Shown here: piece by piece, positions 17,120-45,468 of the stretch
Position numbering within the stretch: the stretch's first letter is position 1
Layout of the letters: each line of letters opens with the position of its first letter
Source: Octopus vulgaris
Taxonomy: Eukaryota
Direction of reading: 5' to 3'
Length of the DNA: 64,000 bases
Assembly (NCBI GenBank): GCA_951406725.2
Contig: OX597822.1
Location: forward strand, 9,548,001-9,612,000
The notes under the pieces: model-generated
Told to the model about the DNA's origin: nothing
What the model saw: the letters and a program-made list of their open reading frames with translations, nothing else
Databases searched by the model: none
Translations under genes and position numbers: made by a program

Positions 17120-17487
17120 TGGCCACCGGAAGTCTTCCCCCATGCGCACGTGCGGGAAACTGACCTCTAAAACGCGGTTCGCTCATTCACTTTTTCTGGC
17201 CCTAGCAGCCCTCATGAACGAACGTGTACTGAGGACTTCATACCAGCCAAGCAGCGAACCACGACGAATCATTTCGACCAACAAACAAGAATCAGTACTA
17301 CAGATTCGGCTCTCGGTTTCCCTCCAGAGAACACGTGCACCAGTTCTACATTACGACGAGAAATAAACACCATTACTTTGCTGTGTTCGTAGACAACCTG
17401 ACTTGTCTGTTATTTTTAACTAAAATTGAATGTGACGGGATCAGATCGGACACCCCTCCAGTGATACCGAATCCAGATCCTGTTACA
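17120..17487 (+). mobile_element. 5'-truncated solo LTR (duplicate of 27279-27719)
   Basis: Near-identical to 27338-27719; ends ATCCTGTTACA. Confidence 0.75.
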
Positions 17488-17801
17488 TACCTATCCGTTG
17501 ATGAAGGCATGGTGGAGTGTAAAGGCAGAATACATTTCCTATGATATATGCCAGGAAAACCCACAAAGTAGGAAATCAAAGTCTGGAAGATTTGTGAAGC
17601 AAATATGGGGTACTGCTGTGGGTTTAGTTATAATTCAGAAAGAAGAGAAATGATCTAAGTCAGCATGGCCTAGGGTACAATGAAGTCTGGAATGTATCAC
17701 TTCCATACCATAACCAGGACTGTATATCTTTTGATCAATTTTTTAGTTTAGTCAAACATGTGATGGATATAGTTGCGACAACATACACATGTGCTACAGT
17801 A

Positions 17802-20800: not shown

Positions 20801-20911
20801 ATTCTGAGGTGGAAAATATTCCCATTTTAGATGAGGTAAGTTCTTAAAATTGTTTGTGAATATGTGTGTGTGGTTGGCATTAGGAAGGGCATGCAACCGC
20901 AGAAACTATGC
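17802..20911 (+). repeat. Tandem array 1: 12 units of ~262 bp, each an ankyrin-repeat exon segment, GTAAGT donor and SINE-derived spacer
   Basis: Each unit encodes (K)KITPLLEAVSGAHLGIIHKLIIHGANMNANDNDGNNCLHLSIIKKEMF.SE.E.IPILDE followed by gtaagt. I count 12 donors between ~18009 and ~20836. Confidence 0.95.
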
Positions 20912-21015
20912 CAAAACTGGCAATTGGTGCCTGAGCAGCTCTGCAGCTGCCCAGCTTCTGCCAAACTATCCAACCCATGCCAGCATAGATAACGAATTAA
21001 AAATGATGATGAGGA
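20870..21015 (+). mobile_element. RTE-tail-type SINE whose 5' part forms the array spacer (second copy at ~38250-38395)
   Basis: ggttggcattaggaagggcat...gaaact...caacccatgccagcatag...atgatgatg, similar to the SINEs at 44085 and 52287. Confidence 0.7.
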
Positions 21016-21198
21016 GGAGGATGTGTGTATGTGTGAGTGAGAGAAAGAGAGAAATAGAGAAACAGGCAGATATTGTTGGCTATTCTCTTTCACTCCCATC
21101 CACTTCTCTTCCTTTAGTATTAAATAATTCAGTTTCCCCTGATAGCACTAGTTGTATTATGTAACTAACAATATTCCATCTTCTTTCACCTTCAAAAG

Positions 21199-21376
21199 CA
21201 TGGCCACTGCACTGTAAAGAATGTAACCCGTCTTAAATATGTGTCATGTAAACACTGCTATCACTGTATGAAGGAGAGGTGACCAACGACAGAGATAAGT
21301 CTTTAAATTTAAGAAAGAGAAATTCACAAACTGTTTTAAATATCGAATTTCAAGTTAAACGAGTTGAACTGTGTTA
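21199..21376 (+). pseudogene. Possible degenerate Cys-rich (RING-like) exon (second copy at ~38578-38755)
   Basis: After a pyrimidine-rich ...aaag, mixed frames give LHCKEC, SCKHCYHC and FTNCFK...QVKRVELC*. Requires frameshifts. Confidence 0.3.
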
Positions 21377-21595
21377 ATTGCTAGAAAGCATATTTCATTA
21401 TTCTTTTTCAAAGAAAGGAAAAGGAAAATAAATTTGTTTATGGACAATTAAATTTGAAGAAAATATATTCATGGACTTCGAAGAAAGTTTCTTTTATCAG
21501 TATGACAATGAATATATAACTGAGTTTATTCAAAGTTGATAATTAGGTTTCCAAATATTGCCAGGGATTGGACTTTGTGTGTATATTGACTACAG

Positions 21596-21720
21596 TAATA
21601 CCCCTTGCAATGATTGTAAAGAAGGGAGATGTGAGGAGAATGAATTTACATTTAGATGTGTGCACAAAAGTGCAATGTCCCGAGATTGTATGTATGACGA
21701 TGTAACTAGACAGATAGTCA
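21596..21720 (+). pseudogene. Possible RING-like exon fragment (second copy at ~38975-39099)
   Basis: Acceptor-like ttgactacag, then NTPCNDCKEGRCEENEFTFRCVHKSAMSRDC (CxxC...CxH...[S]xxC). Cut off by an RTE fragment. Confidence 0.4.
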
Positions 21721-21721
21721 T

Positions 21722-21862
21722 GAGGCCCTTTGTTACCAACAAAGATAGAAGCTCTCTGAACTTTGCCCTGCTTAATCTTATTCTAGCAGCTATGCTCTTG
21801 GCGCATCCACCTCCACTACTGACTTGATTACCTAGATAACAGTAGCTATCAACTACTTCTAG
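21722..21862 (-). mobile_element. RTE LINE fragment (second copy at ~39101-39241)
   Basis: LEVVDSYCYLGNQVSSGGGCAKSIAARIR...KFRELL..LVTKGL, homologous to ORF 48776-50350. Confidence 0.85.
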
Positions 21863-22230
21863 GTGCATATATATATATATATAGGTGAATTCGACTTATT
21901 GAGTATATATGTGGATGTCCGCTTGCTTTACATGGTACAATCATGGTTGTTATAATTATTATTATTATTAATATTAATATTAATTTTATTGACTTTTTGT
22001 GTGGTTATACGGACTTAAATATATATGCCTGCTTTAAATTTAAATGTGAGTGTACATGTATTTCCTTGATGTTGGTTATAGAACTATGAGTTCAATATGG
22101 AACATTATTGTGTTTGTTAATGTATATTGATATATATTGTTTATATTGTATTATTGTGTATATATATATTTGTAGAATTATGAATGTCTATGCACACATT
22201 TGTATATATTTATGTAAATTTTTTTCATAC

Positions 22231-22362
22231 TTACATTAAATTCTCTGAAGAGGCCGTGAGACATTCTTGTTAATGTCTCATTTACACCTGCTTTATATGG
22301 CTAATAGGTTAAATGGGACATACCTGTCTTCACGGCCGAAACAGCTGTCAGCTACAATGTAA
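22231..22362 (+). ncRNA. Minimal type I hammerhead ribozyme
   Basis: CTGAAGA (22245), stem II ggccgtga/tcacggcc, GAAAC-AGCT-GTC (triplet ends 22349); stem I ct/ag plus ttacatt/aatgtaa. Confidence 0.75.
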
Positions 22363-22585
22363 ATGTATTTTCTATTTCTATGTCTTGTTATATTTGTAAT
22401 ATATTATGTATAATGTCATTACTGTTGTGTAATATATTATGTATAATGTCATTACTGTTGTTATATTTGTAATATATTATGTATAATGTCATTACTGTTG
22501 GTTTAATAAAGTATTGATTGGGTATTATCTGATGGTTGATGATTGATTTAGGTATGTTTCTCCATTTTCTCATTTTGTATATATA

Positions 22586-23954
22586 ATTCCCTTTGGTAAG
22601 CAGATTAGAACTAATCTTCCCCTCCTGTTTCGCCAAGCCATTGCCAGTAACTTTCCCAGAAATTCCAAATATTACTCCATGGTTAACTCACATAAAGTTA
22701 GGATAGCTTTCTCCAACACAAAAAACCTTTCCCAGATAATCGCCTCCCATAATAATAGGCTGCTTATTAAGACCCTATCACCATTGTCCGGAGGCGCAGC
22801 TCCGTCTAATTCCAGTTTAACGTGCAGTAGGAATAATAATAAAAGAGCCAGTACAGTGACTGGTAATCTCCGTACCAACCAGAGAGTAAATGGTGATGAT
22901 AATAACGTTAGTAATGGTAATAGGGAGGTGAGCGCAGTTCGGGTCATTAATGTAGAGAGTCCTAATAGCAACTTTAGCAACGTTTCCGACAATAGTAGGT
23001 CCACGGATACTAGCAATCACAGCGTTCTCAGTGATAGGGAATACACAGGGGATAGTCCGTTAATTAGTATTGATAACGAGGAGTATAATGTAGTAGGCGG
23101 CCGCAGTTCTCAGTCATTATAGTAATAAGAACGCAGTATTAATATCAGAAGCAAATCCCAATAGAATAAGGTTCTTGTCTAGTAACTCCAAGATCAGAAA
23201 TGCCATTTACCAATGCAATGTTTACACGGATTCGGATGTCTACTCGTATGTCGGAGCCTCATCGTCAAAATTGGCCTTGAGAATATCGAACCATTTCGCA
23301 ACTTTTCGCGGCGTTAATAAATACCAAGCTACAGGACTTAACAAACTTATCTGGCGTTTGAAGAACGCGAATTCAGTTTTTAGGCTGGAATGGTCGATTT
23401 TGTCGGTGGCCCTCCCGTTTGATAGAGGCAGAAGGATATGTAATCTTTGTAACTCTGAGCTTTTCCACATATTGTTCGCCAGAGGCGCACACATAGGCTA
23501 GTATACACACACATGCTTTTAGGTAGGTATTGTCTCGCACCTAAAAAATACACCCTAAATTCAGAACATTAACTTTGGTCACACAGAACATCTCCACACC
23601 CCTTGTTCTCATTAATTCCTCACCTACTAGATTTGACCACGGCCTGACCTGGATTTATTCCAACGGACCTTTTCGTCGGCCCCCACCAACATACGGCCCC
23701 CGATTTCAACATACATTGATAAACATTTTACCCATGGGCTCTTAAGGAGCATCCTCGTTCGAATTGCTTTGCTGCGCCTTTGTTTTGTTTTGTTCTGACA
23801 ACGTAATTCCTGGTTTTTCCTGAAGAGAAAGCTGCAATATGGTATCCTTATTTAATCAGAATTTGGAAAATTGTGGCCTTTGAAACATGTGTAGAATGTA
23901 ATAAAAGGAATTCTGTACAATCTTCGTTCAACTCCATTTCTTCCATTCACTAAT
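22586..23954 (+). mobile_element. Penelope-like element 3' fragment (GIY-YIG 23175-23501), present only in copy 1
   Basis: Homologous to 91-1602 (AIYQCNV..YSYVGAS..ICNLCNSE). The empty (TA)n site is visible in copy 2 at ~39927-39947. Confidence 0.88.
23812..23900 (+). ncRNA. Hammerhead ribozyme motif, partly decayed
   Basis: CTGAAGA (23820)...TGAAAC-ATGT-GTA-GAA; homologous to 1461-1553. Confidence 0.6.
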
Positions 23955-24088
23955 TATATATATATATATATGTATATATATATGTGTGTGTGTGTGTTTG
24001 AAAGACCTCAGCATCTATCCACTGGTAGATCTGATGGTGTTTATTGTCTGTTGTTGCAGAATTTAAGCAACTCTTTGATTCCCTAATA

Positions 24089-24290
24089 TGTAACGGTCAC
24101 TACAGATGTGTGTAGAAAGGGATCCTTAGCCGTAGTGAAGGCAATCTATCTAGGGAGATAACCTTATAATAAATCACTCGGTCCGTAGCTTAGAAATACT
24201 GGGTTGACGTCCAGCGGGAACAGCTTTGTTTCATGGAGGTGGAAAGATCTTCTTTAGTACTTGGTTGTACAATGCTTTCCAATGTGTGCA
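24089..24290 (+). mobile_element. Possible short LTR (second copy at ~40069-40270)
   Basis: Begins TGTAACGG, contains AATAAA, ends in CA and is followed by gtagTGGCGC (PBS-like). No TSD found. Confidence 0.3.
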
Positions 24291-24711
24291 GTAGTGGCGC
24301 GCGCACACATTATTAGCCATTTGAAAAGACTATGAGTCTCGACCATGGTCGAACAATGATGATGATGCTAGTAGAAAAGGGTTGTCAGTGGATATAAAAA
24401 AAGCAAAATTAAAACAAAAAAAAGTGAAATAATCCAAGAGCTGAAAAGAAATCTATCTACCTATGCACAACCATGTGTAGATGAAAACGGCACCCTGTTT
24501 GTTAACCTTGATTATAACAGGTACATGGGCAGCGTAGATCAGCTGAATCAAATAATAAGCTATTATCCAGTTGGTACACTGGGTAATAAATGATGGTGAT
24601 ACCTGGATGTCCTTCCTAACACCAACCACTCCAAGCGTGTAGCCAACCATTCCAAGAGTGTTCATATTATATAGCAAATCAGGAGGGGCTTGAAAGCAGT
24701 GTGACCATCTG

Positions 24712-25975
24712 GTATGCTATGACCTGTCAGGACTCAGTGGTTTATCCAGTTTTTTACTTGGCAGGTGGATACACTACCAGACTCCACCCTTATGGACACT
24801 ACCTTGGCGTGGTGAAAGAGCTTACATCCATATGGGGGTGATGCCGGATAAAGCCCTCATATTGGACAAACTAAATGTGTCCTTCTTCCCCAAAGCGGTG
24901 CCAAGTAATTTGGTGGGGACCATGCGGGATATGGGTGATCCTGATTGGGTAGTCCCGTGCTAGTCAATTAGTGGCTGGCCCAGTCTGCTTCGTTATCTTC
25001 TGATGGTAGGTTGTGAGGGTTCCTACCGGGGACTTTAAGAATTCGGCTAGGTCCTCCTTTAGTATACATCGGCGGAACCTGGTTGTTATCTGGGAGGGTC
25101 CTGGCTTGGGTCCTTGCTTAGTTCTCTTTGTTAGGAAGGTCCGGGATATCTCGGGTGGTTCCCTATTGGGGATCACCAGATTTCTTCTGGGCCCGAGTGA
25201 GGAGGCCTGTCTTTTATGACCCCAGCCAGCGATGTTATCGAAAACCCACTGCTGACCTGGGGTGGATACACTGACAGGCCGGGCCTGGCGTTGATGACCC
25301 CATTGGGACCTGTTGGTTGTGCTCAGGCTTGAATACACCAGCAGGGAGGTCTGGTATGCTATGACCTGTCCGGACTCAGTGGTTTATCTACAAAGTTTTA
25401 CTCAGCAGATGGATACGCTGCCAGGCCTCACTCTTGGGGTGGAGTTACTGACAGGTGGAACCACTCCCGGTCTGCTGTTGGGAAACGATGTAGTTGGCCG
25501 GAGGGTACTCTAGTCAGTTGGGGCGATGGTTTTGCTAGCCTTACACTGTGGGGGTGGTTTTGCACCTTCTTTAAGTTCAACTTAATCGTTTCAGCCATAG
25601 ACCCATGGAAATTGCCGCTCAGACATGACTAAAATCAATAAGTTTAGAAACAAACAGCAGCCAGGCGCCGCCAAACTGGTGGCCTGTGGGTCCGGGATGG
25701 GGCCCGCAGGTCAGGCTGAGTGCACTGCCCAGATGCGTTCGGCCGAATTGCGACCTTCCCCTGCAGGGGACAACAAGCGATCTCCTCTGCAAGGTAGTAC
25801 TGGAGGCTCATCAAATAATGACTTGACCAGTGTAGGGCGCAAAAGAGAGTGCCTGACACTGACGTATTACAGGAATAGACCGAGCATATTTAGTTTAGAC
25901 TACGGACAAAATTCCCTGGTAGTAAAAGGCTTTCAGCTCCTGCTGGACCGAGCAATCTTAAAACAGACACTAAAT
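24712..25975 (-). mobile_element. Probable non-LTR (Tx1/L1-like) 5'/ORF1 fragment with an internal duplication
   Basis: GC-richer block; minus strand carries a decayed zinc knuckle (..GEEGHI..); ggtatgctatgacctgtc...ggatac occurs at both ~24711 and ~25353. Confidence 0.45.
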
Positions 25976-26783
25976 GTGAAACAATTTTCAAAGAAGCTGT
26001 AACTTATTTCGAGGGAAATGACATTCCCCTAAAAAACACAACAGTTTGTGATAATGACAGTGTTCCATCCATGATTGGCAGATACAGAGGTTTTATTGCC
26101 TATTTGAATAATGCAGTGCCTGAAGTATTTTTGCATACAATGCACAATACTCTGACAACATTTACATTTAAGTGGACATCTTCACAATGCCCTTAATATT
26201 GTGATAAAAATTAATTATATAAAACCAAATTCATTATGAGACAGCATCTTTCATGAATTCTGCAATTGAAATAAAGAGGAGTTTGAACACCTTGTAATTC
26301 ACAGAAGTGAGATGGTTATCGAAAGGTAACTGTCTCAGGTTGTTTTCATGCACTTTGGGACACTATTATCTCGTTTCTGGCTAACAAATGGTTACAGCTA
26401 AATGTAATACATTTTATTTATCCAATATATGACAAAATTAATTTAATAAAGAGTTTCAAGGCCGAAACATTGATCTAATATCCTCCAAAGGAGATATTAG
26501 TCCTTTCTCGAAAAAGTACCACTCTAGAAAATGAATATTGTATGTCGTGCATTGTTACAAATTCCTAGTTTGGAATCGACTAGCAGTAATCTGCATCAGG
26601 ATGACCTTGTATACTGAACAGCTGAAAAAACTTGCAAAATTATATGCCAGGTCAGTTTAGCAACATACTGAAGTTAAATAGACCATGTTGGGTAACACTT
26701 CTTTTTGAAGTTAATGTTACTTATGTAGATATCTGCAAGAGAATCTCACTGGATTCCGGAGTAACAAAATATTTCCAGCAAGA
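25976..26783 (+). mobile_element. hAT (Charlie/Buster-type) transposase fragment, degenerate
   Basis: SMIGRYRGFIAYL..AVPEVF, HLHNALNIVIK, EVRWLSKGNCL. A Charlie-like 3' terminus lies at ~41622-41690. Confidence 0.75.
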
Positions 26784-27278
26784 TTTACCCCTTTAAAGAG
26801 CAACCTGACTATATAACCAGCCGAAAATATTTTTGGTTTAGACGACCAACGTGAATTTCAGCACAAATCTCATTAGTACATTTGTGAAACACAATTTCAG
26901 TTTGTAAATAGTTGTGTTACAGCACCCAACATTATTTGGTGCGATATCTGAGCTCTGCGAATTTTGGGAGATATTTTTTCTACATTTTTTCTTTGGCAAT
27001 TGTTTTTCAAGTTTTAAAATGGATAACAGTTTCATGCAATCAAGCAGTGAATCTGAATTTGAGAAGTTTTCAACGGAAGATACAAAGAAATTGAACACCA
27101 TACAAGTGAAAAACAAAAGCATGTGCTGTACCAAAAGGAATTTAAAACTATTTTTACAAACAGTTTTTCAGAAGAGACTGGACCGACTCGTATGTGGAGT
27201 ACCAAACTTCAATCCATAATTTAAAATCAGACCTGTCATCAAATGCATAAAAACAACTCTACAACCCAGGTACATACA

Positions 27279-27719
27279 TGTAGTGATGCTGCTGTGTAAG
27301 GTTCAGCGCACATGCGCAGAATGGGATTGCTTCCAGTTGGCCACCGGAAGTCTTCCCCCATGCGCATGTGCGGGGAAATGACCCCTAAAACGCTGTTCGC
27401 TCATTCATCCTTTCTGGCCCTAACAGCCCTCGAGAACGGACGTGTACTGGCATTCTCTGTGGACTTCATACCAGCCAAGCAGCGAACCACGACAAATCAT
27501 TTCGACCAACAAACAAGAATCAGTACTACAGATTCGGCTGTCGGTTTCCCTCCAGAGACCACGTACACCAGTCCTACATTACAACGAGAAATAAACACCA
27601 TTACTTTGCTGTGTTCGTAGACAACCTGACTTGTCTGTTATTTTTAACTAAAATTGAAGGTGACGGGATCAGATCGGACACCCCTCCAGTGATACCGACC
27701 GAATCCAGATCCTGTTACA
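27279..27719 (+). mobile_element. Solo LTR (Gypsy-like) inserted into the piggyBac transposase
   Basis: TGTAGTGATGC...ATCCTGTTACA termini, AATAAA, 4-bp TSD taca/tacc; splits YNPGTY|LSVDE. Confidence 0.8.
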
Positions 27720-28019
27720 TACCTATCCGTTGATGAAGGCATGGTGGAGTGTAAAGGCAGAATACATTTCCTATGATATATACCTGGAAAACCCACAAAG
27801 TAGGGAATCAAAGTCTGGAAGATTTGTGAAGCAAATATGGGGTACTGCTGTGGGTTTAGTTATAATTCAGAAAGAAGAGAAATGATCTAAGTCAGCATGG
27901 CCTAGGGCACAATGAAGTTTGGAATTTATCACCAGGACTGTATATCTTTTGACCAATTTTTTAGTTTAGTCAAACATGTGATGGATATAGTTGCGACAAC
28001 ATACACATGTGCTACAGTA

Positions 28020-31000
28020 GTGAAACTGGATATTGCGAATCATAAGAAAATAACACCATTGCTGGAAGCCGTCTCCGGGACCCACCTCGGAATTATCCAT
28101 AAACTAATCATACATGGTGCAAATATGAATGCCAACGACAATGATGGTAATAATTGTTTACCCCTCTCCATAATAAAAAAAGAGAGGTTCCATTCTGAGG
28201 AGGAACATATTCCCATTTTAGATGAGGTAAGTTTTTAAAATTGTTTGTGAATATGTGTGTGTGTGATTGGCATTAGGAAGGGCATGCAACCGCAGAAACT
28301 ATGCCATAAGAAAATAACACCATTGCTGGAAGCCATCTCCGGGGCCCACCTCGGAATTATCCATAAACTAATCATACATGGTGCAAATATGAATGCCAAC
28401 GACAATGATGGTAATAATTGTTTACCCCTCTCCATAATAAAAAAAGAGATGTTCTATTCTGAGGAGGAACATATTCCCATTTTAGATGAGGTAAGTTTTA
28501 AAAATTGTTTGTGAATATGTGTGTGTGTGGTTGGCATTAGGAAGGGCATGCAACCGCAGAAACTATGCCATAAGAAAATAACACCATTGCTGGAAGCCGT
28601 CTCCGGGGCCCACCTCGGAATTATCCATAAACTAATCATACATGGTGCAAATATGAAAGCCAACGACAATGATGGTAATAATTGTTTACCCCTCTCCATA
28701 ATAAAAAAAGAGGTTCCATTCTGAGGAGGAACATATTCCCATTTTAGATGAGGTAAGTTTTTAAAATTGTTTGTGAATATGTGTGTGTGTGGTTGGCATT
28801 AGGAAGGGCATGCAACCGCAGAAACTATGCCATAAGAAAATAACACCATTGCTGGAAGCCGTCTCCGGGGCCCACCTCGGAATTATCCATAAACTAATCA
28901 TACATGGTGCAAATATGAATGCCGACGACAATGATGGTAATAATTGTTTACACCTCTCCATAATAAAGAAACAGATGTTCTATTCTGAGGAGGAACATAT
29001 TCCCATTTTAGATGAGGTAAGTTTTTAAAATTGTTTGTGAATATGTGTGTGTGGTTGGCATTAGGAAGGGCATGCAACCGCAGATACTATGCCATAAGAA
29101 AATAACACCATTGCTGGAAGCCGTCTCCGGGGCCCACCTCGGAATTATCCATAAACTTATCATACATGGTGCAAATGTGAATGCTGTCGACAATGATGGT
29201 ATTAATTGTTTACACCTCTCCATAATAAAGAAAGAGATGTTTTATTCTGAGGTGGAAACCATTCCCATTTTAGATGAGGTAAGTTCTTAAAATTGTTTGT
29301 GAATATGTGTGTGTAGTTGGCATTAGGAAGGGCATGCAACCGCAGAAACTATGCCATAAGAAAATAACACCATTTCTGGAAGCCGTCTCCAGGGCCCACC
29401 TCGGAATTATCCATAAAATTATCATACATGGTGCAAATATGAATGCCAACGACAATGATGGTAATAATTGTTTACACCTCTCCATAATAAAGAAAGAGAT
29501 GTTTTATTCTGAGGTGGAAAATATTCCCATTTTAGATGAGGTAAGTTTTTAAAATTGTTTGTGAATATGTGTGTGTGGTTGGCATTAGGAAGGGCATGCA
29601 ACCGCAGATACTATGCCATAAGAAAATAACACCATTGCTGGAAGCCGTCTCCGGGGCCCACCTCGGAATTATCCATAAACTTATCATACATGGTGCAAAT
29701 GTGAATGCTGTCGACAATGATGGTAATAATTGTTTACACCTCTCCATAATAAAGAAAGAGATGTTCTATTCTGAGGAGGAACATATTCCCATTTTAAATG
29801 AGGTAAGTTTTTAAAATTGTTTGTGAATATGTGTGTGTGGTTGGCATTAGGAATGGCATGCAACCACAGAAACTATGCCATAAAAGAATAATACCATTTC
29901 TGTAAGCAGTCTCCGGGGCCCACCTCGGAATTATCCATAAAATTATCATACATGGTGCAAATATGAATGCCAACGACAATGATGGTAATAATTGTTTACA
30001 CCTCTCCATAATAAAGAAAGAGATGTTTTATTCTGAGGTGGAAAATATTCCCATTTTAGATGAGGTAAGTTTTTAAAATGGTTTGTGAATATGTGTGTGT
30101 GGTTGGCATTAGGAAGGGCATGCAACTGCAGAAACTATGCCATAAGAAAATAACACCATTTCTGGAAGCCGTCTCCGGGGCCCACCTCGAAATTATCCAT
30201 AAACTCATCATACATGGTGCAAATATGAATGCCGTCGACAATGATGGTAATAATTGTTTACACCTCTCCATAATAAAAAAAGATGTTCCATTCTGAGGTG
30301 GAAACCATTCCCATTTTAGATGAGGTCAGTTTTTAAAATTGTTTGTGAATATGTGTGTGTGTGGTTGGCATTAGGAAGGGCATGCAACCGCAGAAACTAT
30401 GCCATAAGAAAATAACACCATTTCTGGAAGCCGTCTCCGGGGCCCACCTCGAGATTATCCATAAACTCATCATACATGGTGCAAATATGAATGCCGTCGA
30501 CAATGATGGTAATAATTGTTTACACCTCTCCATAATAAAAAAAGAGATGTTCCATTCTGAGGTGGAAACCATTCCCATTTTAGATGAGGTAAGTTTTTAA
30601 AATTGTTTGTGAATATGTGTGTGTGTGTGGTTGGCATTAGGAAGGGCATGCAACCGCAGAAACTTTGCCATGAGAAAATAACACCATTTCTGGAAGCCGT
30701 CTCCGGGGCCCACCTCGGAATTATCCATAAAATTATCATACTTGGTGCAAATATGAATGCCAACGACAATGATGGTAATAATTGTTTACACCTCTCCATA
30801 ATAAAGAAAGAGATGTTCCATTCTGAGGAGGAGCATATTCCCATTTTAGATGAGGTAAGTTTTTAAAATTGTTTGTGAATATGTGTGTGTGGTTGGCATT
30901 AGGAAGGGCATGCAACCACAGAAACTATGCCATAAGAAAATAACACCATTGCTGGAAGCCGTCTCCGGGCCCACCTCGGAATTATCCATAAACTCATAAT

Positions 31001-34000
31001 ACATGGTGCAAATATGAATGCCAACAACAATGATGGTAATAATTGTTTACACCTCTCCATAATAAAGAAAGAGATGTTCTATTCTGAGGAGGAACATATT
31101 CCCATTTTAGATGAGGTAAGTTTTAAAAATTGTTTGTGAATATGTGTGTGTGTGGTTGGCATTAGGAAGGGCATGCAACCGCAGAAACTATGCCATAAGA
31201 AAATAACACCATTGCTGGAAGCCGTCTCCGGGGCCCACCTCGGAATTATCCATAAACTAATCATACATGGTGCAAATATGAATGCCAACGACAATGATGG
31301 TAATAATTGTTTACCCCTCTCCATAATAAAAAAAGAGAGGTTCCATTCTGAGGAGGAACATATTCCCATTTTAGATGAGGTAAGTTTTTAAAATTGTTTG
31401 TGAATATGTGTGTGTGTGGTTGGCATTAGGAAGGGCATGCAACCGCAGAAACTATGCCATAAGAAAATAACACCATTGCTGGAAGCCGTCTCCGGGGCCC
31501 ACCTCGGAATTATCCATAAACTAATCATACATGGTGCAAATATGAATGCCGACGACAATGATGGTAATAATTGTTTACACCTCTCCATAATAAAGAAACA
31601 GATGTTCTATTCTGAGGAGGAACATATTCCCATTTTAGATGAGGTAAGTTTTTAAAATTGTTTGTGAATATGTGTGTGTGGTTGGCATTAGGAAGGGCAT
31701 GCAACCGCAGATACTATGCCATAAGAAAATAACACCATTGCTGGAAGCCGTCTCCGGGGCCCACCTCGGAATTATCCATAAACTTATCATACATGGTGCA
31801 AATGTGAATGCTGTCGACAATGATGGTATTAATTGTTTACACCTCTCCATAATAAAGAAAGAGATGTTTTATTCTGAGGTGGAAACCATTCCCATTTTAG
31901 ATGAGGTAAGTTCTTAAAATTGTTTGTGAATATGTGTGTGTAGGTGGCATTAGGAAGGGCATGCAACCGCAGAAACTATGCCATAAGAAAATAACACCAT
32001 TTCTGGAAGCCGTCTCCAGGGCCCACCTCGGAATTATCCATAAAATTATCATACATGGTGCAAATATGAATGCCAACGACAATGATGGTAATAATTGTTT
32101 ACACCTCTCCATAATAAAGAAAGAGATGTTTTATTCTGAGGTGGAAAATATTCCCATTTTAGATGAGGTAAGTTTTTAAAATTGTTTGTGAATATGTGTG
32201 TGTGGTTGGCATTAGGAAGGGCATGCAACCGCAGATACTATGCCATAAGAAAATAACACCATTGCTGGAAGCCGTCTCCGGGGCCCACCTCGGAATTATC
32301 CATAAACTTATCATACATGGTGCAAATGTGAATGCTGTCGACAATGATGGTAATAATTGTTTACACCTCTCCATAATAAAGAAAGAGATGTTCTATTCTG
32401 AGGAGGAACATATTCCCATTTTAAATGAGGTAAGTTTTTAAAATTGTTTGTGAATATGTGTGTGTGGTTGGCATTAGGAATGGCATGCAACCACAGAAAC
32501 TATGCCATAAAAAAATAATACCATTTCTGTAAACAGTCTCCGGGGCCCACCTCGGAATTATCCATAAAATTATCATACATGGTGCAAATATGAATGCCAA
32601 CGACAATGATGGTAATAATTGTTTACACCTCTCCATAATAAAGAAAGAGATGTTTTATTCTGAGGTGGAAAATATTCCCATTTTAGATGAGGTAAGTTTT
32701 TAAAATGGTTTGTGAATATGTGTGTGTGGTTGGCATTAGGAAGGGCATGCAACTGCAGAAACTATGCCATAAGAAAATAACACCATTTCTGGAAGCCGTC
32801 TCCGGGGCCCACCTCGAAATTATCCATAAACTCATCATACATGGTGCAAATATGAATGCCGTCGACAATGATGGTAATAATTGTTTACACCTCTCCATAA
32901 TAAAAAAAGATGTTCCATTCTGAGGTGGAAACCATTCCCATTTTAGATGAGGTAAGTTTTTAAAATTGTTTGTGAATATGTGTGTGTGTGGTTGGCATTA
33001 GGAAGGGCATGCAACCGCAGAAACTATGCCATAAGAAAATAACACCATTTCTGGAAGCCGTCTCCGGGGCCCACCTCGAGATTATCCATAAACTCATCAT
33101 ACATGGTGCAAATATGAATGCCGTCGACAATGATGGTAATAATTGTTTACACCTCTCCATAATAAAAAAAGAGATGTTCCATTCTGAGGTGGAAACCATT
33201 CCCATTTTAGATGAGGTAAGTTTTTAAAATTGTTTGTGAATATGTGTGTGTGTGGTTGGCATTAGGAAGGGCATGCAACCGCAGAAACTTTGCCATGAGA
33301 AAATAACACCATTTCTGGAAGCCGTCTCCGGGGCCCACCTCGGAATTATCCATAAAATTATCATACTTGGTGCAAATATGAATGCCAACGACAATGATGG
33401 TAATAATTGTTTACACCTCTCCATAATAAAGAAAGAGATGTTCCATTCTGAGGAGGAGCATATTCCCATTTTAGATGAGGTAAGTTTTTAAAATTGTTTG
33501 TGAATATGTGTGTGTGGTTGGCATTAGGAAGGGCATGCAACCACAGAAACTATGCCATAAGAAAATAACACCATTGCTGGAAGCCGTCTCCGGGCCCACC
33601 TCGGAATTATCCATAAACTCATAATACATGGTGCAAATATGAATGCCAACAACAATGATGGTAATAATTGTTTACACCTCTCCATAATAAAGAAAGAGAT
33701 GTTTTATTCTGAGGTGGAAAATATTCCCATTTTAGATGAGGTAAGTTTTTAAAATTGTTTGTGAATATGTGTGTGTGGTTGGCATTAGGAAGGGCATGCA
33801 AACGCAGAAACTATGCCATAAGAAAATAACACCATTTCTGGAAGCAGTCTCCGGGGCCCACCTCGGAATTATCCATAAAATTATCATACATGGTGCAAAT
33901 ATGAATGCCAACGCAATGATGGTAATAATTGTTTACACCTCTCCATAATAAAGAAAGAGATGTTCTATTCTGAGGTGGAAACCATTCCCATTTTAGATGA

Positions 34001-37000
34001 GGTAAGTTTTTAAAATTGTTTGTAAAATATGTGTGTGTGTGGTTGGCATTAGGAAGGGCATGCAACCGCAGAAACTATGCCATAAGAAAATAACACCATT
34101 TCTGGAAGCCGTCTCCGGGGCCCACCTCGAAATTATCCATAAACTCATCATACATGGTGCAAATGTAAATGTTGTCGACAATGATGGTAATAATTGTTTA
34201 CACATCTCCATAATAAAAAAAGAGATGTTCCATTCTGAGGTGGAAAATATTCCCATTTTAGATGAGGTAAGTTCTTAAAATTGTTTGTGAATATGTGTGT
34301 GTGGTTGGCATTAGGAAGGGCATGCAACCGCAGAAACTTTGCCATAAGAAAATAACACCATTTCTGGAAGCCGTCTCCGGGGCCCACCTCGGAATTATCC
34401 ATAAACTTATCATACATGGTGCAAATGTAAATGCTGTCGACAATGATGGTAATAATTGTTTACACCTCTCCATAATAAAAAAAGAGATGTTCCATTCTGA
34501 GGTGGAAAATATTCCCATTTTAGATGAGGTAAGTTCTTAAAATTGTTTGTGAATATGTGTGTGGTTGGCATTAGGAAGGGCATGCAACCGCAGAAACTAT
34601 GCCATAAGAAAAATAACACCATTGCTTGAAGCCGTCTCCGGGGCCCACCTCGGAATTATCCATAAACTCATCATACATGGTGCAAATATGAATGCCGTCG
34701 ACAATGATGGTAATAATTGTTTACACCTCTCCATAATAAAAAAAGAGATGTTCCATTCTGAGGTGGAAAATATTCCCATTTTAGATGAGGTAAGTTCTTA
34801 AAATTGTTTGTGAATATGTGTGTGTGTGGTTGGCATTAGGAAGGGCATGCAACCGCAGAAACTATGCCATAAGAAAATAACACCATTGCTGGAAGCCGTC
34901 TCCGGGGCCCACCTCGAAATTATCCATAAACTAATCATACGTGGTGCAAATGTAAATGCTCTCGACAATGATGGTAATAATTGTTTACACCTCTCCATAA
35001 TAAAAAAAGAGATGTTCCATTCTGAGGTGGAAACCATTCCCATTTTAGATGAGGTAAGTTTTTAAAATTGTTTGTGATAATGTGTGCGTGTGGTTGGCAT
35101 TAGGAAGGGCATGCAACCGCAGAAACTTTGCCATAAGAAAATAAAACTATTTCTGGAAGCCGTCTCCGGGGCCCACCTCGGAATTATCCATAAACTTATT
35201 GTACATGGTGCAAATATGAATGCCAACGACAATGATGGTAATAATTGTTTACACCTCTCCATAATAAAGAAAGAGATGTTCCATTCTGAGGTGGAAACCA
35301 TTCCCATTTTAGATGAGGTAAGTTTTTAAAATTGTTTGTGAATATGTGTTTGTGTGGTTGGCATTAGGAAGGGCATGCAACCGCAGAAACTATGCCATAA
35401 GAAAATAACACCATTGCTGGAAGCCGTCACTGGGGCCCACCTCGGAATTATCCATAAACTTATCATACATGGTGCAAATGTAAATGCTGTCGACAATGAT
35501 GGTAATAATTGTTTACACCTCTCCATAATAAAAAAAGAGATCTTCCATTCTGAGGTGGAAACCATTCCCATTTTAGATGAGGTAAGTTTTTAAAATTGTT
35601 TGTGAATATGTGCGTGTGGTTGGCATTAGGAAGGGCATGCAACCGCAGAAACTTTGCCATAAGAAAATAAAACTATTTCTGGAAGCCGTCTCCGGGGCCC
35701 ACCTCGGAATTATCCATAAACTTTCGTACATGGTGCAAACATGAATGCCAACGACAATGATGGTAATAATTGTTTACACCTCTCCATAATAAAGAAAGAG
35801 ATGTTCCATTCTGAGGTGGAAACCATTCCCATTTTAGATGAGGTAAGTTTTTAAAATTGTTTGTGAATATGTGTTTGTGTGGTTGGCATTAGGAAGGGCA
35901 TGCAACCGCAGAAACTATGCCATAAGAAAATAACACCATTGCCGGAAGCCGTCACTGGGGCCCTCCTCGGAATTATCCATAAACTTATCATACTTGGTGC
36001 AAATGTAAATGCTGTCGACAATGATGGTAATAATTGTTTACACCTCTCCATAATAAAAAAAGAGATGTTCCATTCTGAGGTGGAAAATATTCCCATTTTA
36101 GATGAGGTAAGTTCTTAAAATTGGTTGTGAATATGTGTGTGTGGTTGGCATTAGGAAGGGCATGCAACCGCAGAAACTATGCCATAAGAAAAATAACACC
36201 ATTGCTTGAAGCCGTCTCCGGGGCCCACCTCGGAATTATCCATAAACTCATCATACATGGTGAAAATATGAATGCCGTCGACAATGATGGTAATAATTGT
36301 TTACACCTCTCCATAATGAAAAAAGAGATGTTCCATTCTGAGGTGGAAACCATTCCCATTTTAGATGAGGTAAGTTCTTAAAATTGTTTGTGAATATGTG
36401 TGTGTGTGGTTGGCATTAGGAAGGGCATGCAACCGCAGAAACTATGCCATAAGAAAATAACACCATTGCTGGAAGCCGTCTCCGGGGCCCACCTCGAAAT
36501 TATCCATAAACTCATCATACAGGGCGCAAATGTAAATGTTGTCGAAAATGATGGTAATAATTGTTTACACCTCTCCATAATAAAAAAAGAGATGTTCCAT
36601 TCTGAGGTGGAAACCATTCCCATTTTAGATGAGGTAAGTTTTTAAAATTGTTTGTGAATATGTGTGCGTGTGGTTGGCATTAGGAAGGGCATGCAACCGC
36701 AGAAACTTTGCCATAAGAAAATAAAACTATTTCTGGAAGCCGTCTCCGGGGCCCACCTCGGAATTATCCATAAACTTATCGTACATGGTGCAAATATGAA
36801 TGCCAACGACAATGATGTTTATAATTGTTTACACCTCTCCATAATAAAGAAAGAGATGTTCCATTCTGAGATGGAAACCATTCCCATTTTAGATGAGGTA
36901 AGTTTTTAAAATTGTTTGTGAATATGTGTTTGTGTGGTTGGCATTAGGAAGAGCATGCAACCGCAGAAACTATGCCATAAGAAAATAACACCATTGCTGG

Positions 37001-38291
37001 AAGCCGTCACTGGGGCCCACCTCGGAATTATCCATAAACTTATCATACATGGTGCAAATGTAAATGCTGTCGACAATGATGGTAATAATTGTTTACACCT
37101 CTCCATAATAAAAAAAGAGATGTTCCATTCTGAGGTGGAAAATATTCCCATTTTAGATGAGGTAAGTTCTTAAAACTGTTTGTGAATGTGTGTGTGGTTG
37201 GCATTAGGAAGGGCATGCAACCGCAGAAACTATGCCATAAGAAAAATAACACCATTGCTTGAAGCCGTCTCCGGGGCCCACCTCGGAATTATCCATAAAC
37301 TCATCATACATGGTGCAAATATGAATGCCGTCGACAATGATGGTAATAATTGTTTACACCTCTCCATAATAAAAAAAGAGATGTTCCATTCTGAGATGGA
37401 AAATATTCCCATTTTAGATGAGGTAAGTTCTTAAAATTGTTTGTGAATATGTGTGTGTGTGGTTGGCATTAGGAAGCGCATGCAACCGCAGAAACTATGC
37501 CATAAGAAAATAACACCATTGCTGGAAGCCGTCTCCAGGGCCCACCTCGAAATTATCCATAAACTCACCATACATGGTGCAAATGTAAATGTTGTCGACA
37601 ATGATGGTAATAATTGTTTACACCTCTCCATAATAAAAAAAGAGATGTTCCATTCTGAGGTGGAAACCATTCCTATTTTAGATGAGGTAAGTTTTTAAAA
37701 TTGTTTGTGAATATGTGTGCGTGTGGTTGGCATTAGGAAGGGCATGCAACCGCAGAAACTTTGCCATAAGAAAATAAAACTATTTCTGGAAGCCGTCTCC
37801 GGGGCCCACCTCGGAATTATCCATAAACTTTTCGTACATGGTGCAAACATGAATGCCAACGACAATGATGGTAATAATTGTTTACACCTCTCCATAATAA
37901 AGAAAGAGATGTTCCATTCTGAGGTGGAAACCATTCCCATTTTAGATGAGGTAAGTTTTTAAAATTGTTTGTGAATATGTGTTTGTGTGGTTGGCATTAG
38001 GAAGGGCATGCAACCGCAGAAACTATGCCATAAGAAAATAACACCATTGCTGGAAGCCGTCACTGGGGCCCACCTCGGAATTATCCATAAAATTATCATA
38101 CATGGTGCAAATATGAATGCCAACGACAATGATGGCGATAATTGTTTACCCCTCTCCATAATAAGAAAAGAGATGTTCTATTCTGAGGTGGAAACCATTC
38201 CCATTCTAGATGAGGTAAGTTTTTAAAATTGTTTGTGAATATGTGTGTGTGGTTGGCATTAGGAAGGGCATGCAACCGCAGAAACTATGCC
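28020..38291 (+). repeat. Tandem array 2: 39 units of ~262 bp ankyrin exon plus donor, with higher-order repeats
   Basis: I count 39 donors between ~28226 and ~38215. Same unit as array 1. Diagnostic variants recur at 2627-bp (10-unit) and ~1053-bp (4-unit) spacing. Confidence 0.95.
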
Positions 38292-39241
38292 AAAACTGGC
38301 AATTGGTGCCTGAGCAGCTCTGCAGCTGCCCAGCTTCTGCCGAACTATCCAACCCATGCCAGCATAGAAAACCAATTAAAAATGACGATGAGGAGGAGGA
38401 TGTGTGTATGTGTGAGTGAGAGAAAGAGAGAAATAGAGAAACAGGCAGATATTGTTGGCTATTTTCTTTCACTCCCATCCACTTCTCTTCCTTTAGTATT
38501 AAATAATTCAGTTTCCCCTGATAGCACTAGTTGTATTATGTAACTAACAATATTCCATCTTCTTTCACCTTCAAAAGCATGGCCACTGCACTGTAAAGAA
38601 TGTAACCCGTCTTAAATATGTGTCATGTAAACACTGCTATCACTGTATGAAGGAGAGGTGACCAACGACAGATATAAGTCTTTAAATTTAAGAAAGAGAA
38701 ATTCACAAACTGTTTTAAATATCGAATTTCAAGTTAAACGAGTTGAACTGTGTTAATTGCTAGAAAGCATACTTCATTATTCTTTTTCAAAGAAAGGAAA
38801 AGGAAAATAAATTTGTTTATGGACAATTAAATTTAAAGAAAACATACTCATGGACTTCGAAGAAAGTTTCTTTTATCAGTATGACAATGAATATATAACT
38901 GAGTTTATTCAAAGTTGATAATTAGGGTTCCAAATATTGCCAGGGATTGGACTTTGTGTGTATATTGACTACAGTAATACCCCTTGCAATGATTGTAAAG
39001 AAGGGAGATGTGAGGAGAATGAATTTACATTAAGATGTGTGCACAAAAGTGCAATGTCCCGAGATTGTATGTATGACGATGTAACTAGACAGATAGTCAT
39101 GAGGCCCTTTGTTACCAACAAAGATAGAAGCTCTCTGAACTTTGCCCTGCTTAATCTTATTCTAGCAGCTATGCTCTTGGCGCATCCACCTCCACTACTG
39201 ACCTGATTACCTAGATAACAGTAGCTATCAACCACTTCTAG

Positions 39242-39304
<63 letters not shown>

Positions 39305-39645
39305 TGAATTCGACTTATTGAGTATATATGTGGATGTCCGCTTGCTTTACATGGTACAATCATGGTTGTTATAATTATTATTATTATTAATATTAATTTT
39401 ACTGACTTTTTGTGTGGTTATACGGACTGTTAAATATATATGACTGCTTTAAATTTAAATGTGAGTGTACATGTATTTCCTTGATGTTGGTTATAGAACT
39501 ATGAGTTCAATATGGAACATTATTGTGTTTGTTAATGTATATTGATATATATTGTTTATATTGTATTATTGTGTATATATATATGTGTAGAATTATGAGT
39601 GTCTATGCACACATTTTTATATTTATATGTAAATTTTTTTCGTAC

Positions 39646-39777
39646 TTACATTAAATTCTCTGAAGAGGCCGTGAGACATTCTTGTTAATGTCTCATTTAT
39701 ACCTGCTTTATATGGCTAATAGGTTAAATGGGACATACCTGTCTTCACGGCCGAAACAGCTGTCAGCTACAATGTAA
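39646..39777 (+). ncRNA. Minimal type I hammerhead ribozyme (duplicate of 22231-22362)
   Basis: CTGAAGA (39660), ggccgtga/tcacggcc, GAAAC-AGCT-GTC (39764). Confidence 0.75.
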
Positions 39778-42700
39778 ATGTATTTTCTATTTCTATGTCT
39801 TGTTATATTTGTAATATATTATGTATAATATCATTACTGTTGTGTAATGGTTTAATAAAGTATTGATTGGGTATTATCTGATGGTTGATGATTGATTTAG
39901 GTATGTTTCTCCATTTTCTCATTTTGTATATATATATATATATATATGTGTGTGCGTGTGTGTGTGTGTGTGTTTGTTTGAAAGACCTCAGCATCTATCC
40001 ACTGGTAGATCTGATGGTGTTTATTGTCTGTTGTTGCAGAATTTAAGCAACTCTTTGATTCCCTAATATGTAACGGGCACTACAGATGTGTGTAGAAAGG
40101 GATCCTTAGTCGTAGTGAAGGCAATCTATCTAGGGAGATAACCTTATAATAAATCACTCGGTCCGTAGCTTAGAAATACTGGGTTGACGTCCAGCGGGAA
40201 CAGCTTTGTTTCATGGAGGAGGAAAGATCTTCTTTAGTACTTGGTTGTACAATGCTTTCCAATGTGCACAGTAGTGGCGCGCGCACACATTATTAGCCAT
40301 TTGAAAAGACTATGAGTCTCGACCATGGTCGAAAATGATGATGATGCTAGTAGAAAAGGGTTGTCAGTGGATATGAAAAAAGCAAAATTAAAACAAAAAA
40401 AAAGTGAAATAATCCAAGAGCTGAAAAGAAATCTATCTACCTATGCACAACCATGTGTAGATGAAAACGGCACCCTGTTTGTAAACCTTGATTATAACAG
40501 GTACATGGGCAGCGTAGATCAGCTGAATCAAATAATAAGCTATTATCCAGTTGGTACACTGGGTAATAAATGATGGTGATACCTGGATGTCCTTCCTAAC
40601 ACCAACCACTCCAAGCGTGTAGCCAACCATTCCAAGAGTGTTCATATTATATAGCAAATCAGGAGGGGCTTGAAAGCAGCGTGACCATCTGCAGCTCCAA
40701 GCAACTGTAGCAACACAGTTGGGGAAACGTTATTCCTTCAACAAAATAGGACAGAAAGCCAAAGCCTGCCAGAGAGACATCCCTCTCAATTAAGCCAATC
40801 TCCACAAATAAAAAAAAAATTAAAAAATTGAGGGTGCCGTGAATGGCTGCATCAACAAAACTCCCAGTGGATGGACAGTTGAAACTTCTTTCCAATGGGC
40901 ATTTTGCAAGGGCGCAATATGTAGAATGGGATGTTTTACAAGTTTCTATGACAGAAATATTGTGTGAATATTATTATTATTATATACCGAATATTACCGT
41001 TGATTGTTGAAGTATAAAGACGTGTTTTCACTCCTCTCCACGCTGGTCAGCAGCAAGCTTCACAGCTACAAACGAAATTGACCGTCACTTATATTCCTAT
41101 TCATTCGAAACCACGCGTTTCTCGACTCGTGAGTAGACTTTTCTTTAACTACAAATTATTTCCAGAAATTTAAGCAAAACTACACACTCTTATGAGAGAG
41201 TATTTATTTATATATACACCCCGTCAACACCTTCTGTTAACTAAAGGATCACCCACCCAATAAAAAATAGAAGGAAAAAGAGAAGAAAAGAAAGATAAAT
41301 TTACTGCAAGCTCATAATTCAAATACAATCACATTTCTAAGTATTCCAGCCAATATTCTGTACAATCTATTCTATTCTACATACTTCTCCCTAAACAAAG
41401 AATAAATTTTTTTTAAATGTATGATTACATTTTATAAATATTTTTCAAATTTACTTTGTTTCTACTTTTTATTTGCCTGTAAATTGCAATTTACCTGTAA
41501 GGTGACAAGTTCTGATTTAACTTCTATTGTAAATCTTTATTATATACATTTTTAAGTATTCATGTATGTGTGCAAGTTTTATAAAAACACAACGGGATTT
41601 TTTCAAGCATCGAATGGTTAAGAGGGCCTATCTGAGTAAAATAGGAAACAAGAGGGTCCACAAGTAAAAAATGGTCGAGAACACCTATTCTAGATGGTTC
41701 TTTTGCCAACAACAACCCATGCTGCTGACACATGTTTAGAGTACTGCCAGAATTGAAAAACAGTCAGCTACTGTCCAGCAATGATGCCTCCAAAGAAATC
41801 CATGTTAAAATCACGGTATAGCAACAGCTTGTTCATGTGAGAGGCCAAGTAACGGACCAATCACGTAACAGATCCATCAGACATCATTTAACAGAAAACT
41901 CTTGGAGCTTCTAAGATATTCTCTAAACAAGACCTACAAATAGGCACATTTCTGAGCGCCAATTTTTAGTGTGTGGCAACATGCAGCTCAGCTCCATAAA
42001 CTCTCTTGCTGTTTTTAATAATGGTTATCAGAGCTCTTATGCAACTATAAGATTCCGTTAGAGTTGGCCGATATGAATTCAAAGTGTATATTTTCTCCTG
42101 TCTTGGCAAGCTTAATTACAAAGCCTTCTTAATCAACAATTTGTAATAGCTACAGGATTATTTTTCACATTGTATCAAATTCGTTGCAGCAGCTATTTCA
42201 CAACCAACAAGAAAATTACTTGTGCAGTGAAATAAATCTCGTTAATTTATCACAGGTGTTGTGCATTCATTACATGCAGAACTGTCAATATTCTGTCATT
42301 TCCTATTCATGATAATCCTACCGGCCATGACATAAGTTTAAGACTGGTTCTCTATAAGAATTGCCTTAAAGCCAATGATCTAATTCTCAGAGCTGAATCT
42401 ATATCAGAATTAGAGAGAAAACGCCAAGTATGGAAGACAGACTGAAAATAGAAGACAATAAATCGGGGTAAATTATTCAATTTCAGGTAAAAGGTAAAAA
42501 TAAAATTCTTGAGGGAAATGAGGACTCGTTAGACATAAATTATATAAAAAACGTGTTCCTTGCTATGACAGAAATTTTTCTTCTTCCAACACTGCATCTG
42601 TCCAACATAATGGACATGTAAATAGATTCAATAAACATTTTGAATTCAAAGAATCTATGATTTTCTTCCTTTCAAATAAAGTGGGTAACATTGGCATAAA

Positions 42701-44358: not shown

Positions 44359-44471
44359 AACCCAGTCCTTATTTTCTCAACCCTGAGAGGATTAAAGGTA
44401 AAAATCAACCTTGGTGGAATTTGAGCTCACAACAAAGCCAGATGAAATATTGTTAAGCATTTTGCCCATCG

Positions 44472-44852
44472 TACTCTTTTACTTGTTTCAGTCATTTGAC
44501 TGTGGCCATGCTGGAGCACCGCCTTTAGTCGAGCAAATCGACCCCGGGACTTATTCTTTGTAAGCCCAGTACTTATTCTATCGGTCTCTTTTGCCGAACC
44601 GCTAAGTGACGGGGGACGTAAATACACCAGCATCGGTTGTCAAGCAATGCTAGAGGAACAAACACACACACATATATATACATATATACGACAGGCTTCT
44701 TTCAGTTTCCATCTACCAAATTCACTCACAAGGCTTTGGTCGGCCCGGGGCTATAGCAGAAGACACTTGCCCAAGATGCCACGCAGTGGGACTGAACCCG
44801 GAACCATGTGGTTGGTTAGCAAGCTACTTACCACACAGCCACTCCTGCGCCT
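44472..44852 (-). mobile_element. tRNA-derived SINE family A (other copies at ~52775-53170 -, 53750-54133 -, 54344-54755 +, 58488-58856 -, 59905-60172 -, 60443-60830 -)
   Basis: Head ggcgcaggagtggctgtgtggtaag...ggttccgggttcagtccc (A/B boxes), central (TA/TG)n, tail gaaacaagtaaaagagt; seven copies in the window. Confidence 0.88.
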
Positions 44853-45468
44853 AACAATTGCTAACAATTCGGCCAACTTGTTGCCTTGTAACTGATGGTT
44901 TGAAATTTTGACACAAGACCAGTAGTTTTAGGGAGAGGATAATTTGATTACATCAATCCCCAGTACTTGGCTGGTCCATATTTTATTGACCCCTAAAAGC
45001 ATGAAAAGCAAAACTGACCAGAATGAAATTTGAACCTTGGACGTAAAACCAGATGAAATACCACTAAGCATGCTAATAATTCTGCCAGCTTGCCCACCTT
45101 GTATCATAATAATTATGTTGTTGATTGGTTCAAATTTTGGCACAAGGCCAACCATTTCGAGGGCAGGGTTCATTGATTACATAAACCCAAGTACTCAATT
45201 GGAACTTATCTTTATCAAATCTTGAAAGGATGAAGGGCAAAATCAACCTTGGCAACATCTGAACTCAGAAAGTAGCTACATGTTTGCTGGTGAGAGAGAA
45301 AAACGGTATCACAGAAACAATCAGCTGTAAACATGTGTCATCATAGCCATGTAGGATAGGCTTTTGCAGAGTGCTGATGACACTACAACAAGAGTCTCCT
45401 ACATTCAGAATGAGGAGTGCCTTTGGACCAAGCCATTGCATTACTTCATTCTGATTTTCTCAAGGTAT

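Follow-up and report, generated by a model that had tools for sequence, protein, structure and literature searches.

The DNA analyzed here, referred to as the window, is a stretch of 64,000 nucleotides from Octopus vulgaris (assembly GCA_951406725.2, contig OX597822.1, positions 9,548,001 to 9,612,000 of the forward strand), and all positions below are counted from its first letter. It harbors, on the plus strand, the two halves of a piggyBac transposase separated by an insert of 12,323 bp, most of which is a tandemly repeated ankyrin exon. An earlier note on this DNA had read the locus as a piggyBac element that captured a 12-kb gene cargo and may have moved with it. The left half (26784..28022) has a decayed 5' end that reads TTTA and has no terminal inverted repeat (TIR), a start codon at 27019, and the catalytic core as far as CATVV, and it is riddled with stops and deletions. 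The right half (40346..41621) begins with ASRKG, contains internal deletions, encodes a Cys-rich domain reaching to 40961, and closes with TTAA (41618-41621). Pfam recognized the DDD transposase core PF13843 at 27711-27860 (expect value [E] of 4e-10). The profile of the left half retrieved 12 piggyBac proteins among 171 candidates, the best being from molluscs and 64 to 70% identical. With the right half alone as the query, none of 61 candidates was found as a homolog; a HMMER search gave 10 matches, and among the 4 inspected, P0031 to P0033 were piggyBac proteins and P0037 was unrelated. Each of four mollusc-type or unnamed piggyBac proteins (P0017, P0018, P0019, and P0032) matched both halves. 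In P0019, residues 232 to 341 correspond to 27711-28022 (E of 4e-19), and residues 342 to 435 plus 444 to 562, Cys-rich tail included, correspond to 40346-40961 (E of 4e-24). The break thus falls between residue 341, which ends at 28022, and residue 342, which begins at 40346, and the letters here are CATVV / ASRKG where P0019 has CGTIV / ANRKG. The halves abut in this alignment, so that the uncertainty is limited to a single codon at most and there is no duplication at the break. Both halves belong to one piggyBac family and one element. The earlier observations that the transposase motifs run in order and are split by about 12.3 kb therefore hold, and the possibility, also considered there, that the halves come from different families is dispelled by the relatives that they share.

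The piggyBac host is long dead, as is evident from its stops, frameshifts, internal deletions, foreign insertions, and missing TIR. The right end is TTAA and the left end is TTTA, so that TTAA does not stand at both ends; the terminal TTAA described earlier is confined to the right side. End-to-end alignment of the termini gave a score of 22, against a mean of 27 for shuffled sequences, and no inverted repeat rose above the shuffles. The left half contains a 441-bp insertion with TG...CA ends (27279..27719) flanked by a 4-bp repeat with one mismatch, which judging from these letters is likely a solo long terminal repeat (LTR); part of it resembles 45469-45560. The right half carries a 40-bp inverted piece of a short interspersed element (SINE) at 40583-40622. 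Its C-terminal Cys-rich domain (40629-40961) is degenerate, aligns with the C termini of P0018 and P0019, and has no separate Pfam match.

The insert (28023..40345, plus strand) has a left breakpoint that is ambiguous over 28019-28022. About 10 of its 12.3 kb consist of a 263-bp unit present in 39 tandem copies, so that the insert would have measured about 2.3 kb prior to amplification (2,335 bp with the array counted as one unit). A fragment of this size that was later amplified in place is a simpler reading than the capture of 12 kb. The first unit (28020..28226, plus strand) is the 3' part of an ankyrin exon; it begins inside the exon and ends at a phase-0 GT donor. This exon part is 86 to 90% identical to residues 300 to 368 of the Octopus sinensis protein P0001, and the insert exon is 77 to 90% identical to 15 proteins of O. 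sinensis and O. vulgaris. Proteins of the parent family combine ankyrin repeats with a RING and a Death domain, and NCBI lists them as MIB2-like (e.g., XP_036370077.1 and XP_036370631.1), in agreement with the earlier attribution of the fragment to a mind-bomb-like gene. At the place inside the exon where the insert begins, the parent reads QDS followed by VKLD. The proteins P0001 to P0015 and P0038 to P0057 form an expanded Octopus family with ankyrin repeats, a RING, a variable repeat of the VVCPKSEEKA type, and one of two alternative Death domains; we found no paper on this family in open-access full text. The parent gene itself does not lie within the window, and tblastn with the 5 of 15 parent proteins that had matches listed detected neither its RING nor its Death domain nor its upstream ankyrin exons there. 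The two "RING-like" stretches that had been proposed as exon remnants of a captured RING were rejected, since they gave a BLASTP E of 0.62 and no Pfam or ESM Atlas match.

Downstream of the array, the insert continues with (i) a SINE 3' fragment with a decayed (ATG)n tail (38249..38402, plus strand), of which sequence comparison showed 5 further copies in the window; (ii) the presumed donor intron (38403..39100), about 700 bp without database identity that hold both "RING-like" stretches; (iii) a repeat fragment on the minus strand (39101..39241) with a second copy at 49226-49366 in the self-comparison of the window, which from its motif we take to be a piece of an RTE-like long interspersed element; (iv) a high-copy repeat (39411-39910) that includes a degenerate, type-I-like hammerhead core (39660..39764, plus strand); and (v) the 3' part of a high-copy repeat (40092..40345, plus strand), which ends in a hairpin (40319-40332) and an (ATG)n run and forms the right junction. 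The (ATG)n run follows the hairpin and touches piggyBac, and the fold of 40290-40345 has a z score of -3.3. As to the hammerhead noticed earlier, the CUGANGA and GAAA core letters and a long stem II are present (39660-39756, z score of -4.8), whereas stem I pairs just 2 bp by eye, and Rfam gave no gathering-level match in the window and no hammerhead at an E of up to 5 in 38300-40400. Hammerheads typically sit in Penelope pseudo-LTRs (PMC8557442), and the repeat at 39411-39910 is likely such a pseudo-LTR. A second small repeat family (12169-12292 and 15721-15847) has the letters CTGAAGA ... GAAAC and is possibly a further hammerhead-bearing pseudo-LTR.

The tandem array spans 28041..38292 (plus strand) and comprises 39 units of 260 to 266 bp, each made of the exon part, the donor, a short intron piece, and a SINE piece, with 2 nucleotides of microhomology between exon and SINE at the unit joint. 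The ankyrin exon with its donor reported in the earlier note is thus present, and it is the first of an array that the note, which described a single copy, had missed. Units 3 to 12 equal units 13 to 22 in a 10-unit higher-order repeat (28491-33741, plus strand): in the first 22 units, the divergence at a lag of 10 units is 0.9% and several unit pairs are identical, and the later units show a weaker periodicity of 4 and 10 units. This higher-order repeat could be recent or an assembly duplication. In protein, the units are 83 to 95% identical to the best of 9 distinct alleles of the parent family. Each unit is predicted to be able to yield an in-frame, phase 0-0 exon of 195 nucleotides (65 residues) with introns of 65 to 71 nucleotides; the sole possible acceptor is preceded by only 35% pyrimidines, i.e., it is purine rich. 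Open units number 27 of 39, the 12 broken ones starting at unit 3. The uncorrected ratio of nonsynonymous to synonymous variation (pN/pS) is 0.53 (P of 0.01; 39 of 50 units in register). Purifying selection was considered but is not supported, since with transitions and transversions separated the synonymous excess amounted to 26 observed against 21.1 expected changes (P of 0.13) in 50 of the 51 units of both copies of the array, the partial unit A12 being left out. We predict that the array is satellite DNA without a coding role, housed in a transposon that is itself dead; no description of an exon-derived ankyrin satellite in octopus, or of the present locus, was found in open-access full text.

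The other copy of the array lies in a partial duplicate of the locus, copy A (17120..24711, plus strand), which contains both junctions and 12 units, the last of them partial, and is truncated on both sides. It corresponds to 27338-40691 of the locus described so far (copy B), so that neither piggyBac terminus is present, and it sits within 3 kb of the copy B element. The divergence between the two copies ranges from 0.9 to 5.7% by segment and is 1.6% over the longest unique stretch. Copy A has an extra insertion of 1.35 kb in a TA run (22586-23931), parts of which recur at 111-708 and 1160-1637, and its 3' end shares 4 nucleotides of microhomology with the neighboring DNA. Eight of its 12 units are open. 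The mean divergence between units is 5.2% within A, 5.7% within B, and 6.5% between A and B. Because the units differ more than most segments of the two copies do, and because the tree mixes units of A with units of B, the array would be older than the duplication. A simple head-to-tail duplication was rejected, as the left flank lies between the copies and the flanks of A match nothing around B. Judged from the sequence, copy A would be a local partial duplication rather than the product of transposition, or possibly an assembly artefact. Directly after copy A, 84-bp direct repeats that are 83% alike bound a GC-richer segment of 730 bp (24708-25435) with no Pfam match.

Taken together, these features probably reflect an insertion that hit a dead piggyBac only once, whether it entered as RNA or as DNA; this outcome, which the earlier note had named as the one that would overturn its proposal, is the best fit to the data. 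As to the route, we see about an even chance that the insert entered once by reverse transcription of an intron-containing RNA. Into the one transposase, whose halves abut, a non-LTR reverse transcriptase would have used the (ATG)n end of the high-copy element for priming and copied upstream through the intron into the exon, either on one read-through pre-mRNA or by template switching; copying would have halted inside the exon, and short microhomology would have served to join the end, leaving no target duplication. The stretch of 263 bp between the exon and the first SINE of the intron, whose joint shows the 2-nucleotide microhomology, would then have been duplicated and become the array. Subsequently, the region would have been partly duplicated nearby to give copy A, and copy B would have gained its 10-unit higher-order repeat. 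We prefer this RNA route over DNA gap filling because the right junction coincides with the (ATG)n end of a high-copy repeat. A breakpoint on a tail in the sense of the exon, combined with an opposite end cut inside the exon, is the trace expected when reverse transcription from a retroelement tail runs into unspliced RNA, and exon and (ATG)n tail do have the same sense. Evidence on this repeat and on copy number comes from contigs of four sequencing runs (X1, X9, X12, and X18) over 39311-42310, i.e., the right side, where the contig pieces compared are the best 32 of 12,196 and summed depth is not a copy number. X1 may be the sample from which the window itself derives; it may also be an RNA data set, and we do not count its coverage as a sign of transcription. 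The summed depth over 40011-40310 climbs in X9 from 7,135 through 108,420 to 254,339; it rises to the last bin in X9, X12, and X18, and peaks one bin earlier in X1. Among the matches listed, loose contig ends occur at 40092 and at 40315 (the latter in X1, X12, and X18), so that the repeat family extends into the hairpin. Outside the insert, five of six dispersed SINE copies end in at least 4 (ATG) units, and runs of at least 4 such units make up just 69 of about 50,650 non-array plus-strand bases (0.14%). Elsewhere, RTE elements have (TGA)n tails (PMC2887409), and transcription of RTE elements has been described in octopus (PMC9115989); open-access full text yielded no direct statement on the tails of octopus SINEs.

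The DNA alternative, namely, that the piggyBac, already resident and dead, suffered an internal break and that 2.3 kb of exon and intron were copied from a paralog to mend it, would share the later history of array growth and local duplication and is possible, if on balance doubtful. It accounts readily for the retained intron and donor, the missing target duplication, the loss of no more than 3 to 4 nucleotides, and the internal breakpoint; there is also a possible 4-nucleotide microhomology at the left, with the parent codons inferred from QDS-VKLD. According to PMC8277862, gap filling is the route for most single-copy Pack-TIRs, but 57% of Pack-TIRs lie at most 15 kb from their parent, whereas here the window contains no parent gene. 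Gap filling would further need a chance end on a sense (ATG)n run, i.e., on 0.14% of the plus-strand bases.

Several observations weigh against a single RNA-mediated entry followed by neutral decay. (i) No target-site duplication (TSD) is present at the insert, since the halves abut. Local SINE copies offer a weak calibration, as three candidate repeats occur in six copies, two of which (2/6) are plausible TSDs of 8 to 9 bp. (ii) The loose contig ends stop just before the (ATG)n run, and we infer the membership of this run in the repeat family. (iii) Neither the donor intron nor an empty piggyBac site is among the sequences compared. (iv) Total depth at 40375 is about 2, 12, 8, and 22 times the flank depth in X1, X9, X12, and X18, respectively, which includes related copies of at least 85% identity, so that a few older junction copies could hide among the family members. 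(v) Array amino acid variants equal states found in 9 paralog alleles more often than expected by chance, also when the 4 of 62 columns in which the array majority differs from the commonest paralog state are dropped (9 of 50 variants, against 25 of the 373 that are possible; P of 0.003). A neutral array that stems from a single donor and is closed to exchange leaves this excess unexplained. Such variants could result from gene conversion by paralogs, from more than one donor, from mutation hot spots, or from weak selection. A bolder version of the RNA route, which we regard as unlikely, is that an (ATG)n-tailed octopus retroelement moved unspliced pre-mRNA of a host gene and that the resulting higher-order satellite of spliceable, phase 0-0 ankyrin exons still exchanges sequence with the expanding family, as a variant reservoir or proto-gene.

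Under a true Pack-piggyBac, the cargo would have been captured while the family was active, the loaded element would have jumped, and copy A would be the remnant of a second jump; this we consider quite unlikely. Two copies with both junctions in the window and the TTAA at the right end are in its favor, and the summed depth beside the junction allows up to about 8 to 22 related copies. Copy A, however, has no termini, lies close to copy B, and joins the adjoining DNA at a microhomology, and copy B has no TIR. Furthermore, among the matches listed, the right-junction contigs have depths of 10.2 (X1), 147 (X9), 80.5 (X12), and 12.6 (X18), against flank depths of 9.5, 73 to 93, 143 to 173, and 10.9, respectively, i.e., 0.5 to 2 times single-copy depth. 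In all four runs, which carry three organism labels, contigs with 0 or 1 differences bridge the TTAA into the same flank. For the right junction and the right end, the contigs listed gave no sign of further copies that carry this cargo to other target sites. The depth data fit this locus plus copy A and show no dispersal, and the element likely never transposed with its insert; movement with the cargo is thus not supported. Other members of the piggyBac family differ by 19 letters in about 140 to 155 (two contig records). Contigs in X9, X12, and X18 jump over about 440 to 470 bp of the piggyBac 3' region (40970-41438), pointing to deletion derivatives of the family elsewhere.

A Helitron-type nature of the insert, under which such an element would have taken up a piece of the gene and would terminate in a hairpin plus CTAG before a T, is very doubtful. 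The hairpin at 40319-40332 is indeed followed by CTAG and T, and the repeat is high copy. However, translated in the transposase frame, the letters CTAG give the Ala of ANRKG, a position at which three of four full relatives have Ala. Helitron insertion is precise, and the left junction lacks a 5' TC and a target loss of about 10 nucleotides would be required. Helitrons do capture gene fragments, as mentioned in the background on Pack-MULEs and Helitrons in PMC6431247. Finally, it is scarcely credible that the array would be a working tandem-exon ankyrin gene, with 195-nucleotide exons spliced via a cryptic acceptor in the SINE piece: the in-frame open units with their short introns, the paralog-matching variants, and the uncorrected pN/pS would suit it, but units are broken from the third on, the corrected test is not significant, the acceptor is purine rich, and there is neither a start exon nor any downstream parent exon.

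The element is bordered by sequence related to hAT transposons. On the left, a remnant of a FAM200/ZBED5-like hAT transposase (25960..26783, plus strand) was detected by ESM Atlas with a score of 0.95 (203 of 256 features in common) to the DUF4371/PF27073 and FAM200-ZBED5 clusters; it had no Pfam match. On the right, contig depth and sequence show a short repeat present in multiple copies (41622..41695, plus strand), whose end is hAT-like and borders on TTCTAGAT. From its terminal motifs we take this flank to be a hAT terminus, and TTCTAGAT is presumably a target motif of Charlie/Buster-type hAT elements. The hAT sequence noted earlier on both sides is therefore supported on the left and presumed on the right, but the flanks are not contiguous, and, assuming the usual hAT anatomy, the C-terminal coding part is absent between them. 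As they do not join cleanly, the true left end of the piggyBac may be deleted. Self-comparison of the window also revealed a repeat family of 380 to 400 bp, with at least six copies in 17 kb at 82 to 92% identity (44469-44853, 52783-53169, 53749-54133, 54343-54746, 58491-58857, and 60446-60830).

As it stands, the locus adds another case to a known class, that of gene fragments lodged in dead DNA transposons, and is mostly ordinary genomic debris. A mobilized piggyBac gene cargo would matter more, and the present data do not show mobilization. Of wider relevance are two aspects. First, the insert may have been copied from RNA that still contained its intron and so only look like a Pack element, and loci of this type would wrongly be scored as DNA capture. 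Second, what was a coding exon now forms a structured satellite, with variants that overlap those found in a gene family specific to the Octopus lineage.

Comparison with known systems places the locus close to, but outside, the animal Pack-TIRs. Tan et al. (2021; PMC8277862) describe 370 of these, mostly single-copy, formed without transposition, and having internal breakpoints and microhomology. The PiggyBac rows in its Supplementary Data 1 number 8, namely, 2 from medaka, 5 from strPur2, and 1 from zebrafish, so that single-copy Pack-piggyBacs are an already catalogued class, contrary to the earlier remark that capture is rarely described for piggyBac. As in the single-copy Pack-TIRs of that study, host sequence lies inside one TIR element with internal breakpoints, short microhomology, and almost no element loss, and capture followed after the element had settled; the insert lies between two parts of the same element, as all four relatives match both halves. 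Unlike Pack-TIRs, whose internal sequence measures 100 to 5000 bp, the present insert reached 12,323 bp via later tandem amplification (2,335 bp if the array is reduced to a single unit), its host is an autonomous-length transposase copy without recognizable TIRs, the window holds no parent, and the 3' breakpoint falls on a probable retroelement tail. The criteria of that study also call for flanks that extend to the consensus termini and for a unique parental copy at 90% or above; the parent of the present insert is known from its proteins. We do not file the locus as a Pack-TIR because it exceeds this size range, lacks TIRs, and may be RNA derived. With Pack-MULEs and multicopy Pack-TIRs (Ssk-FB4), it shares the placement of a gene fragment, which lies between two portions of a DNA transposon; these have intact TIRs, dispersed copies, and separate target duplications, none of which was found at the present locus. 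The exon boundary agrees with that of the parent ankyrin-RING-Death family, of which the insert retains only the 3' part of one ankyrin exon.

A second comparison concerns 5' transduction by non-LTR retroelements such as SVA and L1. For SVA, a published screen looks for sequence located 5' or 3' of the SVA within the TSDs (PMC12593883). The insert resembles such products in that upstream gene sequence, truncated at its 5' side, precedes what is probably the 3' end of a retroelement and has the same orientation, and differs from them in the lack of a TSD, the (ATG)n instead of a poly(A) tail, and the unspliced donor site. Higher-order satellite DNA, in turn, is matched by the head-to-tail 263-bp units, the 10-unit repeat at 0.9% divergence, and the mosaic variants, but the monomer here is mostly a coding exon with a splice donor, and only 39 plus 12 units are seen.

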